In this document: one piece after another, positions 10,870 to 56,701 of the stretch
How the letters are laid out: each line of letters opens with the position of its first letter
How positions within the stretch are numbered: position 1 is the first letter of the stretch
DNA from: a phage
Reading direction: 5' to 3' (one strand)
Sequence record: PZ402300.1
DNA length: 64,000 nucleotides
The notes under the pieces: generated by a model
The model's input: the letters and a program-made list of their open reading frames with translations, nothing else
Told to the model about the DNA's origin: nothing
The model's database searches: none
Made by a program: the position numbers and the translations under genes

Positions 10870-11313
10870 ATGGATTTGTCATTCTTAACAGGCAACCAAA
10901 CCCCACAGCCAGCTGCTATGTCTTGGATGTCTAATAACAATCAAAACTTTAATACCCCGGCTATGAACTATAATCCCGGTGCAGCTATTGGTATGGGTAC
11001 GAATTTTGGAGCATCTGCCCCTAATACTTTCATGTCTGGCTCGGCTAGTCAGTTAGGCATGAACATACCTACCTTCCAATTAGGACTGGGTGCACTTGGT
11101 TCATTAGCTAATATCTACAGTGGTTTCCAGGCTAATAAGTTAGCCAAAGACCAGTTGAACTTTGCTAAGAGTGTTACTAACACTAACCTGAATAATCAGA
11201 TTAAGTCTTATAACACTGCACTGGAAGACCGTGCTCGTAGCCGTGCTGTTGCAGAGAACCGTGACCAATCTACTGCTGATGCTTACATTGCAGCTAATAA
11301 ATTAACCCGTTAA
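10870..11313 (+). CDS. Hypothetical virion protein (N4 gp52 position)
   Basis: Track ORF 10849..11313; in-frame ATG 10870 follows AGGAG at 10857-10861. Confidence 0.4.
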   Translation: MDLSFLTGNQTPQPAAMSWMSNNNQNFNTPAMNYNPGAAIGMGTNFGASAPNTFMSGSASQLGMNIPTFQLGLGALGSLANIYSGFQANKLAKDQLNFAKSVTNTNLNNQIKSYNTALEDRARSRAVAENRDQSTADAYIAANKLTR

Positions 11314-11325
11314 TAGGAAACCATC

Positions 11326-13272
11326 ATGGCTCAAATTACATGGCGTAATGTTGATGCACCCAACTTCTCTGGAGTTGGTGACAGCATTCGCACATTTGGC
11401 AATATGATTGGTAACGCCACCTCCGGCTTAAGTGATGCACTGGGTAATTTCCAGAACGCTGCCAAGCAGGAGGCTGGCAATGCCGTCATGATGAATGCTA
11501 TGCAGTATCAAGACCCTACTGAGTATCGTAATGCTCTGGCATCCGGTGCATTATTTCAGGGGGTTGATCCTTCATTGGTAAGCCAGCGTACTCTACAGAA
11601 TCTGGATGAGCGAGCAGGTACTCTTCTGACTCAACAAGGTCAACAGGGAATCAATGACTACAATGCTTATCGTTTTGGTCGTTTACAGAATACTGACTCT
11701 GCATTAGATAATGCATCTCCAGCTATTCGTTTACTGTCTGAGGCTTATCAGTCTGGTGACCAGAACCGTATTAATGCTGCATTGAGTCAGACTCGTGAGG
11801 CACTGTCTGCACTTCCTGCTGACCAACAACTGGATATGTTGAGTCGTCTGCAAGGTCAGGGTGGTCAGGCCATTAACCAAGCACAGAACCGTTTTGATTT
11901 GGGTGTGGCTCAGCGTAATGATGCTGATTCACAAGCTGCATCCGGTATATTGACAGATATTTTCCGCAGTGCTTCTACGCCTATGGATGCTCTTACACTG
12001 GCAGAATCTGCCATGAAGAATGCTTCTCCTGGTGTACGTGCTGCAATTATGCGAGGTGTGAACCAGAGATTCCCAGGTACTTATGCCACGTCTGCTTCTG
12101 GCTCTGCTCCTGGTACTGCCGGTACTCGTTCTGGTTCTCCTTATGATGTAACCTACACTTTTGCTGCTACTGATAAGCCCATTACCGAGATGACTCTCGG
12201 TGAGGTTACTAATCATCAACAAACTATGATTAATAACCCATCGCAAGGTCATTCTCCTGTAGGTGCATTCCAGATTAATAAAGCCACTCTGGAAGACTAT
12301 GCTCCTAAGGTGCTTGGTTCAGATTGGCGTAATCAGCAAATGACTCCTGAAGTACAGGACAAAATAGCTGAAGCAATCTTCAATGACCGTAAGAGTGGTA
12401 ACCTTTCTAAGACTTGGGCTGCATTGCCTGACCTGGGTGTAGGTGGTTATAAGGATATGCCTTGGAGTGAAGCACGTCAGTTAATTGCACAGGCAGAAGT
12501 AGGTGCATCCCTTGAACAGTTACAGACCCAGCAAGTAGTCTCAAACATGGCAGGCAATACAGTTGCTGCTCGTCAGTCTGAAGATAATACTGGAACCATT
12601 ACTGCTAACTATGCTCGTGCATTACGTGATAACTCTACCATTGGTGAAGTAGCAGACCGTCTTCTTAAGGATGCTTTTAAAGGTTCTGAGAAAGGATGGA
12701 TGATTGCTCGATTGAATGATGTTATGCAGGAATCTGGGCAGTCTCCTGCTGTAGCTGCTGAGATTCTTAAGCAGTCTACTACTAACGTACCGGAAAGAAT
12801 GATTAGTCGGGCACTTGATGCACTTAACCCGTTCATCTCCAATGAAGGTGGTAATGGTATTCGTATTGATGATACCGTTGCCAGAGAACTAGCACGTTCA
12901 GTACGACGTGGGGAAGGTATTGAAGCTACTGCTCGTGATAATGTTCTTACTCAGGTACAGGGTAATATTGCTAATGCCCAGAACCAGGTAAACCAAGCAG
13001 AAGCTTTGCTTGCTGATACCCGTCGTCGTGTAGCTGCTGGACAAAGTGGACTTGCTGCTACTATCCCTGCTCGTGAAGCTGAGTTAGCAAGAGCACGTGC
13101 TGCACTGGATGCTGCTGTTAATACTGTGGTAGCTAACCAGGGAAATCTGGTTCCACAGAACTTCCGTTCTAATGCTTCAGTAGAACGTGAGCGTAGTCGT
13201 GAAGATGAAGAACGAGCTAAACGTTATCGAAAATTGGCAGAGGGTTTACCTCCCTATATGCAACCTCGATAA
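11326..13272 (+). CDS. Virion protein with a lytic-transglycosylase-like motif (N4 gp51 position)
   Basis: 648 aa; segment TEMTLGEV…GHSPVGAFQINKATLEDY resembles the E…G(L/A)(M/F)Q core of lytic transglycosylases. Confidence 0.45.
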   Translation: MAQITWRNVDAPNFSGVGDSIRTFGNMIGNATSGLSDALGNFQNAAKQEAGNAVMMNAMQYQDPTEYRNALASGALFQGVDPSLVSQRTLQNLDERAGTLLTQQGQQGINDYNAYRFGRLQNTDSALDNASPAIRLLSEAYQSGDQNRINAALSQTREALSALPADQQLDMLSRLQGQGGQAINQAQNRFDLGVAQRNDADSQAASGILTDIFRSASTPMDALTLAESAMKNASPGVRAAIMRGVNQRFPGTYATSASGSAPGTAGTRSGSPYDVTYTFAATDKPITEMTLGEVTNHQQTMINNPSQGHSPVGAFQINKATLEDYAPKVLGSDWRNQQMTPEVQDKIAEAIFNDRKSGNLSKTWAALPDLGVGGYKDMPWSEARQLIAQAEVGASLEQLQTQQVVSNMAGNTVAARQSEDNTGTITANYARALRDNSTIGEVADRLLKDAFKGSEKGWMIARLNDVMQESGQSPAVAAEILKQSTTNVPERMISRALDALNPFISNEGGNGIRIDDTVARELARSVRRGEGIEATARDNVLTQVQGNIANAQNQVNQAEALLADTRRRVAAGQSGLAATIPAREAELARARAALDAAVNTVVANQGNLVPQNFRSNASVERERSREDEERAKRYRKLAEGLPPYMQPR

Positions 13273-52682: not shown

Positions 52683-52796
52683 TTAACTTAATGCATAATC
52701 TGTTTCAAGGATGTCCTGCCAGAGGCTGTCATCCAGCTTACCAGCAGAGAACTCTTGTCCCAGTACCTGAGTCAGGATGAATCCCAGTAAGTCACT
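52683..52796 (-). CDS. RNAP II large subunit, exon 3 (C-terminal segment ending …WQDILETDYALS); 5' boundary uncertain (alternative exon start 52898)
   Basis: C-terminus aligns with T7 RNAP C-terminal …LRDILESDFAFA; lies in track ORF 52683..52979 whose N-terminal part overlaps the HNH ORF and is presumed intronic. Confidence 0.45.
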   Translation of the reverse strand, partial: SDLLGFILTQVLGQEFSAGKLDDSLWQDILETDYALS

Positions 52797-53839
52797 CTTA
52801 GCAATGTCAGACAGAATCTGATTGTACTGACGACGCAGGTCATTACCGTAGTTAGGATGGCATCTAAAACCATTAGTTAAACGAGTCGTTAGCTCGCCCT
52901 TACCTTCCATGATTAACATGGAAGCCATACGTAGCATCTGCTTCTTTACGAGCAAGCATTGCCTCCTCAAGTGTGTCATACGTACCCAGACCGATCTGTT
53001 TACGATTGACTGTGATGTGTGCCTGGAATCTACCAGAAGGTAATATTCTTACACCATTCACTTTGCTTGATGTATTACGTGATAAACCCATATTCATCTG
53101 GTTCTGTCTACTGGTTACATTTCTCAGATTAGACCAACGGTTGTCGTTTCTAATGTGATTGATGTGATCCACCTGGTTAGGTGTTTCCCCTGTTTCCATT
53201 ATCCAGATTATTCGATGCAGTAAGTACTCTTTACGACCCAGACTAACAGATAAATAGCCTTCTTTGTGAGGATACCCCACAATTGTTCCGGCTAATCCAC
53301 TAGCAGAGTCGTAACGATGAGTTACTAGCCCACTTTCTCTGTCATACCGTAAAACCTTCTTCAAAGATTCTTGGGTAATAGTATCCAAGTCTTTTATCAG
53401 GTTCTTACAGGTAGGACATAGGTGGCCTATTGGACTCTTTTTAGCATCATAGAAGTTGCAAACAAACTCACTAGAGCATTGCTTACAACTACAGATAGCT
53501 GTGTACTTACCAGTTTTACGTAATATTTGGGAGTTATCTAACATATGGATTCCTTAGTAATTTTGCATACAATTTCAGATTGTATCCTAACCAAGGAAGT
53601 AAGTCTCCAGTTTTCACTGGAGTATCGGACTATATCATCACCCACTAATCAGTGGGGCAAGGCGCTTGGGTGGTCACTTGACTCACCTACTCTACTCACA
53701 TACGAAATGTTTTCGATAGTCTCTGAACCTTCCCTCATGGAGGGCTTGGCTGCTGATTGGCATATCCATAGGACTTAGCTTTCCAGCAATTCACCTTGTT
53801 TTCGACACGGATTACTCCGTGAAGGATCATTTATGTTTA
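52797..53839 (-). mobile_element. Group I intron 2 (approximate boundaries) carrying an HNH-AP2 homing endonuclease gene
   Basis: Minus-strand core elements AAUUGCUGGAAAGC (P-like), AAUCAGCAGCC (Q-like), GGUUCAGAGACUAUCG (R-like, 53714-53729) and GAUGAUAUAGUCCGAUAC (S-like, 53622-53639); begins with UAA directly after the exon-2 …VHD codon; P1 not identified, 3' end could be 52899 instead. Confidence 0.55.
52900..53544 (-). CDS. HNH homing endonuclease with C-terminal AP2-type DNA-binding domain (intron 2-encoded)
   Basis: 214 aa; HNH motif VDHINHIRNDNRWSNLRNV; AP2-like region VNGVRILPSGRFQAHITVNRKQIGLGTYDTLEEA. Confidence 0.7.
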   Translation of the reverse strand: MLDNSQILRKTGKYTAICSCKQCSSEFVCNFYDAKKSPIGHLCPTCKNLIKDLDTITQESLKKVLRYDRESGLVTHRYDSASGLAGTIVGYPHKEGYLSVSLGRKEYLLHRIIWIMETGETPNQVDHINHIRNDNRWSNLRNVTSRQNQMNMGLSRNTSSKVNGVRILPSGRFQAHITVNRKQIGLGTYDTLEEAMLARKEADATYGFHVNHGR

Positions 53840-54446
53840 ATCATGTACAGTCATTACAGGGAATGGCTTCTTAGGTAAAGTATTGAGCATAGTCAGGATT
53901 ACATCTGTATCAACCAATGCAATGGTTTCTGAGTCCAGATAATCAAAGATACGGGTAGACAGAAAGCCTGATTTCTCATAGCTAGCCCACAGTGTATTAA
54001 CCGTTTCATGACTAGCACCAGGGACAACTATGTATTCACCAGTTCCTTCACAGAGGGACTTAATATAGTTCACCTGGTTCACGTTGAAGTTACAACGACG
54101 CAGCATCTCACGTACCACCATCCCATCAATAGAGTGAGTGATGTTAGCAGAGAGCATACGGGTCTTCTCTTCAGTACCCTGAACCATACGAGTGATGTCG
54201 AATGGCTTACCTAAGAAGTTAACAGTCTGTACTTCAGGAACCATGACCTTAATGACAGCATGGAAGTTGTCAGGAAGTACCCATACGTAACGGTTAGCAT
54301 CAGGATTACCACATTGCAGTAAGAACTTGTTAAGTGCCCAAGGACCACTAGCAACAGTTTCCATTACATTCTCAAAAGTCTTGAGACGAATACCTTCACC
54401 GAATACTTCTTTAGGCTTGGCTTCTGAGCCGTAGAATGCAGTCATA
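53840..54446 (-). CDS. RNAP II large subunit, exon 2 (motif B second half through motif C region)
   Basis: Track ORF 53837..54445 (MTAFYGSEAK…VMTVHD); TAFYGS aligns to T7 RNAP TLAYGS (Y639); TLWASYEKSG aligns to T7 TVVWAHEKYG. Confidence 0.7.
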
Positions 54447-55253
54447 CATTATGTTCAAGGGAGGTCGTTAGTCTCCCCCAGCAGCTTTACCTGCATCTCA
54501 CTGTTACCAGTGAGTTCGGACTATATCATCTAGACTGATAGTCTAGCCGGGCGCTTCGACCCACTTGGGCCTACTCTACTAAGTTCAGCTTTCGCTGCTT
54601 TTCGATAGTCTCTGCACCTTTTGGTTATTCAAAACAGCATCACACATATCAATAAAGTCATTGGTTGAGAGGTCACCCTTTGCTCGGTTTACACACCAAG
54701 CTAACCATTGAACATTACCAATACTGTATCCTTTACTTGGTTCTATCTGATCTAGTGATAGACACAAAGGATGCCCCGATTCAATTACTAAGGTTGCTCC
54801 AGTTAAAGCACATTTAAATTCCTGTGATTTAAGGATTTCAAATAAATACTCTACTGTACAATCTGGCATAGGCTTACCAAACTTTTTACACCGACTTCTT
54901 GCATCCTTTAGTCTATGGGAGACTGCGGAATACCATTTACGGTGTTCTTTTGGTATTGCTTTACGAACTCCAGTTCCATTGTAACCTGGGTTCTTTTTAC
55001 GCCATTCACGAGCTACAGCAGCCTTACAGGGTCTGCAACGATTCTCGTAATTAGTTTTGAATCCTGTGAGTGATTTTTTAGTCTCTGGGAATACTTCGAT
55101 AGGAAGTAATTTTTTACATCGACTACATGTTTTGAATTCTGACATAGAATGCTCCTTATTGAACTTTCTACGCTACCAACTTGGCTCATGATTGTCCACT
55201 AGGGATGTTCCATGAGTTCACCCGGTTTTAAGGCCGCCATGACTTAAAGGTTA
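54447..55253 (-). mobile_element. Group I intron 1 (807 nt) carrying an HNH/His-Me-finger-like endonuclease ORF
   Basis: 5' exon ends GGCCGU paired with intron GCGGCC (P1, U-G at splice site); intron AGUCAUG pairs with exon-2 start UAUGACU (P10); terminal G at 54447; R-like GGUGCAGAGACUAUCG (54602-54617) and S-like GAUGAUAUAGUCCGAAC (54514-54530). Confidence 0.75.
54585..55145 (-). CDS. Intron 1-encoded putative homing endonuclease (zinc-ribbon N-terminus, degenerate HNH/His-Me finger core)
   Basis: 186 aa; CSRCKK…CRPCK Cys pairs; LSLDQIEPSKGYSIGNVQWLAWCVNRAKGD resembles an HNH-type nuclease core. Confidence 0.5.
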   Translation of the reverse strand: MSEFKTCSRCKKLLPIEVFPETKKSLTGFKTNYENRCRPCKAAVAREWRKKNPGYNGTGVRKAIPKEHRKWYSAVSHRLKDARSRCKKFGKPMPDCTVEYLFEILKSQEFKCALTGATLVIESGHPLCLSLDQIEPSKGYSIGNVQWLAWCVNRAKGDLSTNDFIDMCDAVLNNQKVQRLSKSSES

Positions 55254-55675
55254 ACGGCCTGCTTAGTGTCACTACGCTTAATACGTGATGCTTCACCAAG
55301 GATGTCCAGCATCTTGTGATAGATAACTGTATAGGCATCACGGCGTAATGGCTTACCATTCTCATCCATGTAGTTAACTACGTTACACAGTTCAGCAGCA
55401 GAGCGGTCACCAGTCAGACAGGCCAGTAACTGTAAGCCTGATGATGTAGCATCCAGAGCTACAGCATAACCAATAGGCTTACCTGCTTTCATATCTTTCC
55501 ATGCATTTACACCTGCAAAGAACAGAGCAGAATCCTCTGCTTCATCTACCAGATTAAGCAGGTTAGCTTCATTCTCATCGAACCAGGCAATACGTTCATC
55601 CCATGTCTTTTTATCTAAGCCATAGTTATTAGCGATATCTACTTTCAGGTATTCACGAGCGGTTAACAGTTGCAT
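55254..55675 (-). CDS. RNAP II large subunit, exon 1 (motif A through first half of motif B)
   Basis: Track ORF 55244..55675; ALDATSSGLQLLACLTGDRSAA aligns to T7 RNAP [22 protein letters not shown] (D537); ends RSDTKQAV. Confidence 0.7.
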
Positions 55676-55882
55676 TTTATGTTCCTTTTGCTTCTTGGCT
55701 CCCCACTATGGAGAGCCTGCTTATTGGATGATTAGGCAGTTACTACGTCAGCAGATAGTTTATAAATAATGGTTTTACTCTCAGGGTTTTGAAGCTTGTA
55801 AAGTTTCGCAAAGTATAAGCACTTCACATATGTACCCGAGTAGACACACTCCTCATTAACCCATAGCTCATAGGAGCCAATG

Positions 55883-56701
55883 TTAGTCTTCATTTACTAA
55901 CTCCTTATCAGCGAACTCCAGTACAGCTTTGTTGTAACTGGTTCCCTGATAGTTGATGTGGTAGCCACAGGCATAGGTACGCCCACGTTTGTCGTATTTG
56001 TGAGCTAAGGAGAAGTTATTACCTTCTTTGGTCACTAGCTCCATTACTTCCTTAGCTGTACGGCTGTACTTCTCAAAGGCTTTAACACGTTTTTCATAGT
56101 CCTGACGGGTTTCACCTTCTTTAGGTTTATCCATGTTAGGACGAGAGTCTTTTACATAATTAGCAACGTCCCAGTTAATGCAGAGACGTTGGTTATTCAT
56201 GCGGTTGATGTGGTCAAGACAGACATCCATCTCATGATGGTTCTTCTTGAGGATGATGCTACCTCTGCTTTCGTAGTAACCAGTATCACGATTACACTTA
56301 ACAGGCTTAGGAGCACTTACGATAGGCAATGGATACTGGAATGCTTCCAGTTCCATCTGTACATCTTCACTAATCTCATAGATAACACCTAACTTGTCGA
56401 TGGTAGGGTCATAGTTGAAGCAGTCATTCTCTGCCATCTTATACAGACAGTCAGCAATGTACTGAGCATCATCTGAATGACTCATGAGAGAGCCAATCAT
56501 AGTCTGGATGTCAGCACGCTTATGTAGAGCAATCTGCACCATTGCATCAATGAGCAGCTTATAATCAATTTCCAAATAGGCAGCAAAAGCCTTAAAGTCA
56601 ATTTCTTCGGAGTCCTCGAATTCCTTCCTCATGCGAGGGAGTAATTGATTCTTGTTGAAAAGGATTTCAAGTCGCTTCTGATGTTCAATAGATGAGTACA
56701 T
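55883..56701 (-). CDS. RNAP II small subunit (N4 gp15-like; N-terminal portion of a split T7-like RNA polymerase)
   Basis: 272 aa; C-terminal KYDKRGRTYACGYHINYQGTSYNKAVLEF aligns to T7 RNAP DWRGRVYAVSMFNPQGNDMTKGLLTL. Confidence 0.65.
   Translation of the reverse strand: MYSSIEHQKRLEILFNKNQLLPRMRKEFEDSEEIDFKAFAAYLEIDYKLLIDAMVQIALHKRADIQTMIGSLMSHSDDAQYIADCLYKMAENDCFNYDPTIDKLGVIYEISEDVQMELEAFQYPLPIVSAPKPVKCNRDTGYYESRGSIILKKNHHEMDVCLDHINRMNNQRLCINWDVANYVKDSRPNMDKPKEGETRQDYEKRVKAFEKYSRTAKEVMELVTKEGNNFSLAHKYDKRGRTYACGYHINYQGTSYNKAVLEFADKELVNED

Follow-up and report, generated by a model that had tools for sequence, protein, structure and literature searches.

The RNA polymerase II gene of a G7C-like phage is split by two td-like group I introns that very probably entered it independently

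A stretch of phage DNA of 64,000 nucleotides (nt) from sequence record PZ402300.1, here called the window, belongs to a G7C-like (Gamaleyavirus-type) phage and encodes on its minus strand an RNA polymerase II of the N4 type, with two subunits. RNAP2, the homologue of gp16, is split in three by two group I introns. Very probably these are two separate mobile introns of the T4 td-like subgroup IA2, which entered the gene independently and are not duplicates of each other. The likeness of about 95 nt that they share is that of a catalytic core conserved through the whole phage-intron family, and introns 1 and 2 are different, long-established, site-specific lineages. The history is most likely one of two homing invasions from other N4-like phages that already bore an intron at the cognate site.

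In the proposed mechanism, each intron would fold after transcription into P1-P9 plus the extra hairpins P7.1 and P7.2, and would excise itself with a guanosine cofactor, restoring the frame of 405 amino acids (aa); such self-splicing is predicted to occur in vivo. When a relative with an intron-less allele co-infects the cell, the endonuclease of each intron would cleave that allele at the conserved site proper to the intron, and recombinational repair would copy the intron into the cut allele, so that both introns are expected to home with a site specificity of their own. By analogy with known elements, they may also play a role in the competition of co-infecting phages.

Exons, ribozymes and intron-encoded proteins

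The exon limits were set by blastn with the intron-less gp16 of G7C, and all features of the gene lie on the minus strand. RNAP2 starts at 55675. Exon 1 (55254..55675) encodes aa 1-140 plus 2 nt of codon 141 and ends in ...GGCCGU, with U at position -1; exon 2 (53839..54446) runs from the remainder of codon 141 to aa 343 plus 1 nt of codon 344 and ends in ...CAUGAU-U; exon 3 (52683..52870) runs from the remainder of codon 344 to the stop codon. At the boundary of exon 1 and intron 1 identity shifts abruptly, and intron 1 aligns over nt 1-807 in seven other contigs. By the same blastn comparison, both introns follow a U at the last exon position and have G as their last nucleotide. The joined exons make a 1218-nt open reading frame (ORF) for a 405-aa protein that is 91% identical to G7C gp16, and residues 1-405 of the spliced product align to residues 1-404 of N4 RNAP2 (PDB 6dt7_B, E = 4e-192), gap-free at both junctions. 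Judged by the motifs of T7-type polymerases, intron 1 splits motif B (RSDTKQAV/MTAFYGS, the slash marking the junction), and intron 2 sits directly after the catalytic Asp of motif C (VHD/CF).

Intron 1 (54447..55253) has 807 nt and is a group I intron of the IA2/td type without P2; it starts with UAACC and ends in ...UUGAACAUAAUG, with the omega G at 54447. Its 5' ribozyme segment (55146..55253) contains the guide, the P3 5' strand CCGGGUG, the P4/P5 hairpin, P6, the 5' strand of P6a and the Shine-Dalgarno sequence AAGGAG of the intron ORF, while the 3' ribozyme segment (54447..54626) contains P6a', P6', J6/7, P7, P7.1, P7.2, P3', P8, P7', P9, P9.1 and P9.2 with its UAACGA loop. P1 is formed by exon GGCCGU and guide GCGGCC, and the intron end is AAUG. 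Against Rfam RF00028, whose gathering score is 50 bits, intron 1 gave two partial matches, one of 36.1 bits (E 5.6e-7) for the 3' half and one of 16.7 bits (E 0.39) for the 5' half, both under 50 bits because the 561-nt ORF interrupts the model. The fold was obtained instead by RNAalifold on an ORF-deleted alignment of intron 1 with four same-site orthologues, which returned the long-range P3, P4, P5, a P6a that brackets the ORF, P7.1, P7.2, P9, P9.1 and P9.2, with 29 of the 71 pairs of the consensus compensated, i.e., changed on both sides. P3 is compensated across the orthologues (CCGGGUG/CGCCCGG, CAUCGUG/CGCGAUG, CUUCGUG/CGCGAAG), and compensated pairs were also found in P4, P5, P6a, P9, P9.1 and P9.2. 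Folded one by one, the hairpins of both introns likewise took the expected shapes.

The ORF of intron 1 (54585..55145; ORF 1) encodes a putative homing endonuclease of 186 aa with an N-terminal CxxC...CxxC, placed in the P6a loop upstream of P7. It matches PHROG 1035 'endonuclease VII' at 1e-31 and HNH PHROGs more weakly; searches of Pfam, NCBIfam and PDB sequences returned no match. The last ~14 codons and the TGA of this ORF (54585-54626) overlap P6a', P6', J6/7, the P7 5' strand and P7.1, and this segment is therefore under a dual constraint of protein and RNA. The same overlap of ORF and core was seen in Achromobacter phage JWAlpha (ORF at 1981-2541 of contig L005, core from 2516).

Intron 2 (52871..53838), of 968 nt, is likewise a group I intron of the IA2 type; it has a P2, and its omega G is at 52871. 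It matches the full model (1-253) of RF00028 over 53848..53605 with 92.8 bits (E 1.5e-22), above the gathering score, and the Rfam match together with hairpin folding places the ribozyme from P1 to P9.1 at 53545..53838. In P1, exon GAUU pairs with GAUC, and the intron end is again AAUG. The terminal hairpin P9.2 (GCGAG-CUAACGA-CUCGU), followed by UUAACUAAUG, occupies 52871..52899. Between P9.1 and P9.2 lies the intron 2 ORF (52900..53544; ORF 2), encoding a 214-aa protein like homing endonucleases with HNH_3 and AP2 domains (Pfam HNH_3 at 1e-15, 57.5 bits against a cutoff of 24.8; AP2 at 1.4e-4; PHROG 99 at 1e-58). The Shine-Dalgarno sequence of this ORF (AAGGA; 53545-53575) lies within the 3' strand of the long P9.1 (UUCCUUGGU / ACUAAGGAA), which suggests that folding of the ribozyme hides the ORF from translation. 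No third intron turned up anywhere in the window in a relaxed Rfam scan.

Orthologues at the same sites and allele states

Break points of RNAP2 in relatives were mapped by tblastn of the spliced protein. At site 1, the gene is broken at 141/142 in Burkholderia phage HN02, Achromobacter phage JWAlpha, and Vibrio phages phi 1 and pVco-5, each with an ORF of ~186 aa. These ORFs are the top database matches of ORF 1, with identities of 54% (HN02), 52% (JWAlpha), 41% (Vibrio phi 1) and 39% (pVco-5); ORF 1 is also 46% identical to the ORF of the same-site intron of XC38. The 5' splice site GGCCGU/UAACC and the 3' ends are conserved across the orthologues, and a more distant site-1 intron, 71% identical, is present in another phage contig of ~73 kb (L143). 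At site 2, the gene is broken after residue 343 in E. coli phage ZQ2, Shigella phage Moonfish and Pseudomonas phage ZC08 and at 346/347 in pYD6-A, with ribozyme followed by ORF in each, and in Erwinia phage MIF8 the intron stands directly after the same HD codons (VHD/), where the tblastn match extends to residue 353. The ORFs of MIF8 and ZC08 at this site are ~210 aa long, carry the HNH_3 domain and share the architecture of ORF 2, and the copies in ZQ2 and Moonfish match intron 2 along its full 968 nt with 99% and 94% identity.

Orthologues at both sites thus agree with the window introns in ORF family and in ORF position, and those in other genera resemble them along the entire ribozyme. 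The RNAP2 proteins of the carriers from other genera are 30-55% identical to that of the window, and both lineages, with their endonucleases, are therefore old, site-specific and older than this phage group. A first-pass annotation of the window, made from its letters only, had proposed that a single intron lineage colonised two conserved sites of this essential gene; that proposal finds no support, for each intron occurs together with its endonuclease at the same codon in distant N4-like genera.

Further introns were seen in relatives. Pseudoalteromonas phage pYD6-A has two IA2-type introns in RNAP2 (L010, 2362-2640 and 2939-3905), one near residue 235-241 and one at motif C, and a double-intron RNAP2 is therefore not unique to the phage of the window. 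An N4-like contig of IMG/VR (L036, ~1490-1720) has its intron close to residue 246. The RNAP2 of Schitoviridae thus has at least three intron sites, namely motif B, motif C and near residue 240. In Pseudomonas phage ZC08 (L009, 4631-4714), a td-like IA2 core (ACGACUAUCCCGCAAGGGAGUAGGGCCAAGUGGCUCGAAACGG...) is located just after the HNH endonuclease gp69 in a split ATPase gene; the ATPase insertion, described as a homing-endonuclease element (PMC5418858), is probably a further group I intron. In the G7C-like Escherichia phage SP5M (NC_070869.1, 32062-32143), an 82-nt match of 74% to P9-P9.2 of intron 1 lies inside a 'hypothetical protein' gene far from RNAP2, and may be another intron; the relaxed Rfam scan gave no counterpart of it in the window.

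Intron-less and single-intron alleles, for which a search among related N4-like genomes had been suggested, do exist, and G7C-like phages show four states: no intron (G7C), intron 2 only (ZQ2 and Moonfish), intron 1 only (L137 and L138, metagenome contigs in which exons 2 and 3 are fused) and both introns (the window and L135). Most G7C-like phages in the isolate-phage collection are intron-less. That collection holds no record of the double allele, none covering at least 80% of the query; no isolate genome in it joins sites 1 and 2, and no E. coli phage in it carries intron 1. At least seven contigs from metagenomes or Logan have intron 1 alone, and two genomes of isolates have intron 2 alone. 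For ORF 1, an exact look-up was empty and a protein-pattern scan of IMG/VR gave only distant relatives of at most 52%; a large protein search returned a protein 97% identical to it (P0001), on 13 contigs.

The second double allele, L135, is part of an assembly labelled Salmonella enterica (GCA_026132285.1, JANDFC010000012.1, 74,785 bp); the contig is a complete-length N4-like phage genome, presumably of a phage that came with the culture or with the library that was sequenced. Compared with the window, its introns are 96.4% and 95.1% identical, whereas its three exons are only 80%, 73.5% and 83% identical. Conservation of introns above that of exons is a signature of horizontally spreading elements, and together with the four allele states it indicates that the two introns spread independently. 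In the 60 nt downstream of each junction, identity between the window and L135 rises to 90-93%, as co-conversion might leave it, though these bins also encode the conserved motifs B and C.

The likeness of the introns against the family background

The first-pass annotation had described the two introns as paralogs, with a core of ~110 nt duplicated between the minus-strand segments 54617..54514 and 53729..53622. The similarity of these segments is real. Global alignment gave 79/116 identical positions (68%), with a score of 35.5 against -0.9 ± 4.0 in 1000 dinucleotide-preserving shuffles (z = 9.1), well above random expectation. The blocks that had been listed (GAGACUAUCGAAAA, GUAGAGUAGG, CAAGUG, AAGCGCC and GAUGAUAUAGUCCGA) are all found in both segments, and the compensatory variation is borne out as well, since P7.1, P7.2 and P8 of the two introns differ by structure-preserving changes. 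P8 folds in both introns, as CUAGACU-AUC-AGUCUAG in intron 1 and CCCACU-GAUU-AGUGGG in intron 2; the observation that these hairpins differ is right, their sequences being wholly different, but the 'CCCGG' assigned to the hairpin of intron 1 is the P3 3' strand, outside P8. The portion shared by the introns, from the P7 5' strand to the P7 3' strand, extends over 54519..54611 in intron 1 and 53628..53722 in intron 2.

The ORFs had been said to differ in position and in endonuclease type, and both statements stand. ORF 1 is upstream of P7 in the P6a loop and belongs to PHROG 1035, whereas ORF 2 lies between P9.1 and P9.2 and belongs to HNH_3 + AP2 / PHROG 99, and their products have no sequence relation (BLASTP E = 0.38). 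Since both families and positions differ, the endonuclease genes were acquired separately, as had been supposed; such independent acquisition is consistent with the data but long predates this phage.

Outside the core the likeness fades. The 5' halves of the two introns are 52% identical (z = 3.1 against shuffles) and the regions after P7 (P9) show no significant identity (z = 0.2), while with same-site orthologues the 5' halves reach 73% identity (intron 1 and JWAlpha, z = 12) and 77% (intron 2 and MIF8, z = 14.6). P2 is present in intron 2 and not in intron 1.

Inside the core, the likeness is that of a family. Both introns carry P7.1 and P7.2 between the P7 5' strand and the P3 3' strand, an insertion diagnostic of subgroup IA and here in the IA2 layout. 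Over 33 family members the two hairpins covary (double changes: 17 and 12 for P7.1, 22 and 15 for P7.2), a count made without P8, which is hypervariable and unalignable by MAFFT; P7 (GACUA/UAGUC) is invariant among the members compared and is therefore uninformative for covariation. A scan of IMG/VR with the motif GTAGAGTAGG-N(0-12)-CAAGTG matched at least 120 contigs, and the entire core, (A/C)GACUAUCGAA...GUAGAGUAGG...CAAGUG...CGAA(A/G)YG...GAUAUAGUC, is present in ~65 of the 120 contigs listed, a number to be read as a lower bound. The blocks shared by the two introns, GACUAUCGAAA, GUAGAGUAGG, CAAGUG, GAAGCGCC and GAUAUAGUC, are thus a family-wide IA2 signature found in dozens of unrelated phage introns, whose host genes among those listed include terminase, Ig-domain structural, ART-polyvalent and other genes. 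Another common feature, missed in the first reading of the sequence, is the terminal UAACGA-loop hairpin with U(G/U)AAC(A)UAAUG after it, which both introns share with 40 of 85 listed family members, T4 td included.

Measured against this background, the pair is ordinary. The cores of introns 1 and 2 are 66.7% identical; to 68 other distinct listed cores, intron 1 has a median identity of 65.5% and intron 2 one of 61.9%. Ranked by nearness in this set of 68, intron 2 comes 26th from intron 1, and intron 1 comes 22nd from intron 2. In an 86-sequence MAFFT alignment, in which T4 td and nrdB, ZC08, pYD6-A and an Aeromonas intron were added to the listed cores, intron 2 ranks 24th of 85 from intron 1, and intron 1 ranks 52nd of 85 from intron 2. 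Intron 1 is less distant from the DNA-polymerase intron of Aeromonas phage AS-gz (p-distance 0.18) than from intron 2 (0.345), and introns of quite different genes (L069, L099 and the terminase intron of L040) are likewise nearer to intron 1. The paralogy of the introns, or duplication of their core, is accordingly not upheld: identity equals the family median, ranks run from 22nd to 52nd, and similarity fades outside the core.

Trees of the core are of little help. Neighbour-joining (NJ) on the ~95-nt core gave no bootstrap replicate that groups exclusively site-1 and site-2 introns, the minimal clade uniting the two introns in the point tree is supported by none of the 500 replicates, and the site-1 and site-2 groups themselves were recovered in only 1-9% of replicates. 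Because NJ trees of the core leave deep relationships unresolved, the argument was built on ranks, full-length comparisons and same-site orthology, and not on topology.

Several points weigh against the account given here. Both introns fall in a loose 16-taxon cluster of the point NJ tree, held together mainly by the P3' sequence AAGCGCC; the cluster has 0% bootstrap and includes the Aeromonas DNA-polymerase intron and two introns of other genes. The core of ~95 nt is too short for deep branching, and a remote common origin within the RNAP2 genes of N4-like phages is therefore conceivable. Sampling was also not neutral, as the family was drawn by a motif present in both introns and the relatives in Schitoviridae were found by BLAST with the introns themselves. 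Furthermore, ORF 1 reads LDQIEP where many HNH enzymes show DH, which leaves its endonuclease role putative, and both splicing and endonuclease activity are deduced from the sequence.

A broader reading takes RNAP2 as an unrecognised hot spot of group I introns, with at least three sites and a possible fourth in motif A of a divergent polymerase, with lineages descended from one ancestral RNAP2 intron that moved ectopically, and with introns that circulate as 'weapons' of co-infection among G7C-like coliphages. If true, it would explain the coexistence of all four allele combinations, and it is judged unlikely. Slightly less likely still is a deep common descent alone, in which an early intron of N4-like RNAP2 transposed ectopically, through reverse splicing or retargeting of its endonuclease, and left the site-1 and site-2 introns as ancient IA2 sisters. 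Most RNAP2 introns of Schitoviridae (site 1, site 2 and site X of pYD6-A) do gather with P3' AAGCGCC in the 16-taxon cluster, and the two introns are found on a split side of at most 20 taxa in 16% of bootstraps. Yet that cluster, besides its 0% bootstrap, takes in the AS-gz DNA-polymerase intron, L069 and L099 and leaves out the site-1 introns of Vibrio phages; P3' covaries with P3, so that convergence is possible; and neither the 5' halves nor the P9 domains lend support.

A recent duplication fares far worse. In the scenario of the first-pass annotation, one lineage was duplicated within this gene or phage lineage and took a second site, and the copies gained different endonucleases. The genuine similarity of the cores, the inner P3 pairing GGUG.../...CGCC, the extended variant of P7.1/P7.2, the terminal UAACGA hairpin common to both introns and the unlike family and position of the ORFs would all fit, but every shared feature is family-wide, more than 20 listed introns of other genes or phages are closer than the pair at its median identity, little or no similarity exists outside the core, P2 is confined to intron 2, and each intron with its ORF has same-site orthologues in genera with RNAP2 proteins only 30-55% identical; the scenario is thus highly improbable. 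An assembly duplication or a chance resemblance is practically excluded, as the similarity stands nine standard deviations above shuffles, copies of 68% identity are no collapsed or duplicated repeat, the double allele recurs in the independent public NCBI assembly L135, and single-intron alleles exist in contigs and isolates. Independent entry of two long-separate lineages therefore remains the preferred account.

Two listed contigs deserve mention of their own. In L040, a viral contig of 93 kb, two family introns ~1.4 kb apart (11239-11332 and 12694-12787) closely flank the ORF of the terminase large subunit, so that here too two members of the family are neighbours. L099 (2186-2484) has one of the cores nearest to intron 1 among the listed relatives. 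The gene that holds it is unannotated, and the ORFs on either side read ...LDASA / ..MLQYIG..., FTPMLYGSG and IDIHDAF. BLASTP aligned them weakly but colinearly with motifs A and B of RNAP2 (E = 0.036 and 0.58); the host gene has no Pfam match and its identity as an RNA polymerase is unconfirmed, and it possibly encodes a divergent RNA polymerase of the single-subunit kind whose motif A is split by the intron.

Gene neighbourhood and known systems

RNAP1 lies upstream of RNAP2 at 56701..55883 on the minus strand. The spacer between the two genes (55732-55893, minus strand) has one ORF only, of 53 aa and without a Pfam match; in G7C the same spacer carries a free-standing HNH endonuclease of 193 aa (gp15.1), and in related contigs ORFs of 128, 168 or 202 aa, so that the spacer is a variable cargo slot. 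Elsewhere in the window, two adjacent tRNA genes were found at 25093-25247 on the minus strand (Rfam tRNA, 64.8 and 42 bits), and weak sub-threshold matches resembling tmRNA at 26275-26427.

Genes of this kind are listed in public records as two or three 'RNA polymerase' ORFs plus an 'HNH endonuclease' or a 'hypothetical protein', when in fact each is one spliced essential gene. The analysis also shows that, when one genome holds two group I introns, a likeness of their cores is no evidence of duplication unless gauged against the family background. The coexistence of intron-less, single-intron and double-intron RNAP2 alleles in close coliphages offers a tractable natural system in which the separate homing of two introns in a single gene, and intron-mediated competition, could be studied.

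A close and well-known relative is the td intron of T4, also of subgroup IA2. It has the same order of GACUA, P7.1, GUAGG, P7.2 (GUC-AAGU-GAC), CGAAA/P3', P8 and GAUAUAGUC, the same P9.2 with a UAACGA loop, and a 3' end ...UGAACAUAAUG, with CUGAACAUAAUG in td corresponding to UUGAACAUAAUG in intron 1. The ORF of the td intron is located in P6a; in td and intron 1 alike the ORF is looped out upstream of P7, as the compensated P6a pairs demonstrate for intron 1. The differences from td are the host gene, which is thymidylate synthase, the endonuclease, which is of the GIY-YIG type (I-TevI, T4 record) in contrast to the endonuclease VII-family ORF of intron 1, the lack of P2 in intron 1, and P7.1, which is short in td (UCCCUUUGGGGA) and of a longer variant, UCGAAA...GAGUAGAGUAGG, in the window introns. 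The T4 record annotates td and nrdB as group 1A introns, and nrdB has the same IA2 core layout as the window introns. The sunY/nrdD intron has its ORF 3' of the catalytic core, an arrangement like that of intron 2. Both nrdB and nrdD differ from the window in host gene and endonuclease, I-TevIII of nrdB being an H-N-H enzyme annotated as defective in T4.

Close parallels are also the split RNAP2 genes of other N4-like phages (JWAlpha/JWDelta, HN02, Vibrio phi 1, pVco-5, ZC08, MIF8, ZQ2, Moonfish and pYD6-A), with the same insertion codons, ribozyme lineages and ORF families and positions. They have been published or annotated not as group I introns but as 'two RNAP2 genes', as in JWAlpha/JWDelta (PMC4837373), or as a homing-endonuclease insertion, as in ZC08 (PMC5418858), and no paper naming these insertions group I introns was found in the searchable literature. 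In an N4-like phage of Vibrio, the td gene has been described as carrying a group I intron (PMC5746245). Two group I introns were reported in the ribonucleotide reductase gene of Staphylococcus phage Twort (Landthaler et al. 2002, as cited in PMC5418858 and PMC12908238); as summarised there, Twort resembles the window in having several group I introns, some with endonuclease ORFs, at conserved motifs of one essential gene, and it differs in phage, gene and intron subgroup, the comparison being drawn from those descriptions.

Group I introns with homing endonucleases among co-infecting phages, and marker exclusion in Bacillus phage SPO1, are treated in a review (PMC12908238). The elements reviewed there are like those of the window in placing an endonuclease-bearing group I intron at an active-site codon of an essential phage gene, a likeness that is functional only. 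The four allele states are what such competition or homing would yield. On the whole, the two RNAP2 introns represent expected mobile-intron biology without a new mechanism, as previously unannotated members of a very well known kind of element.

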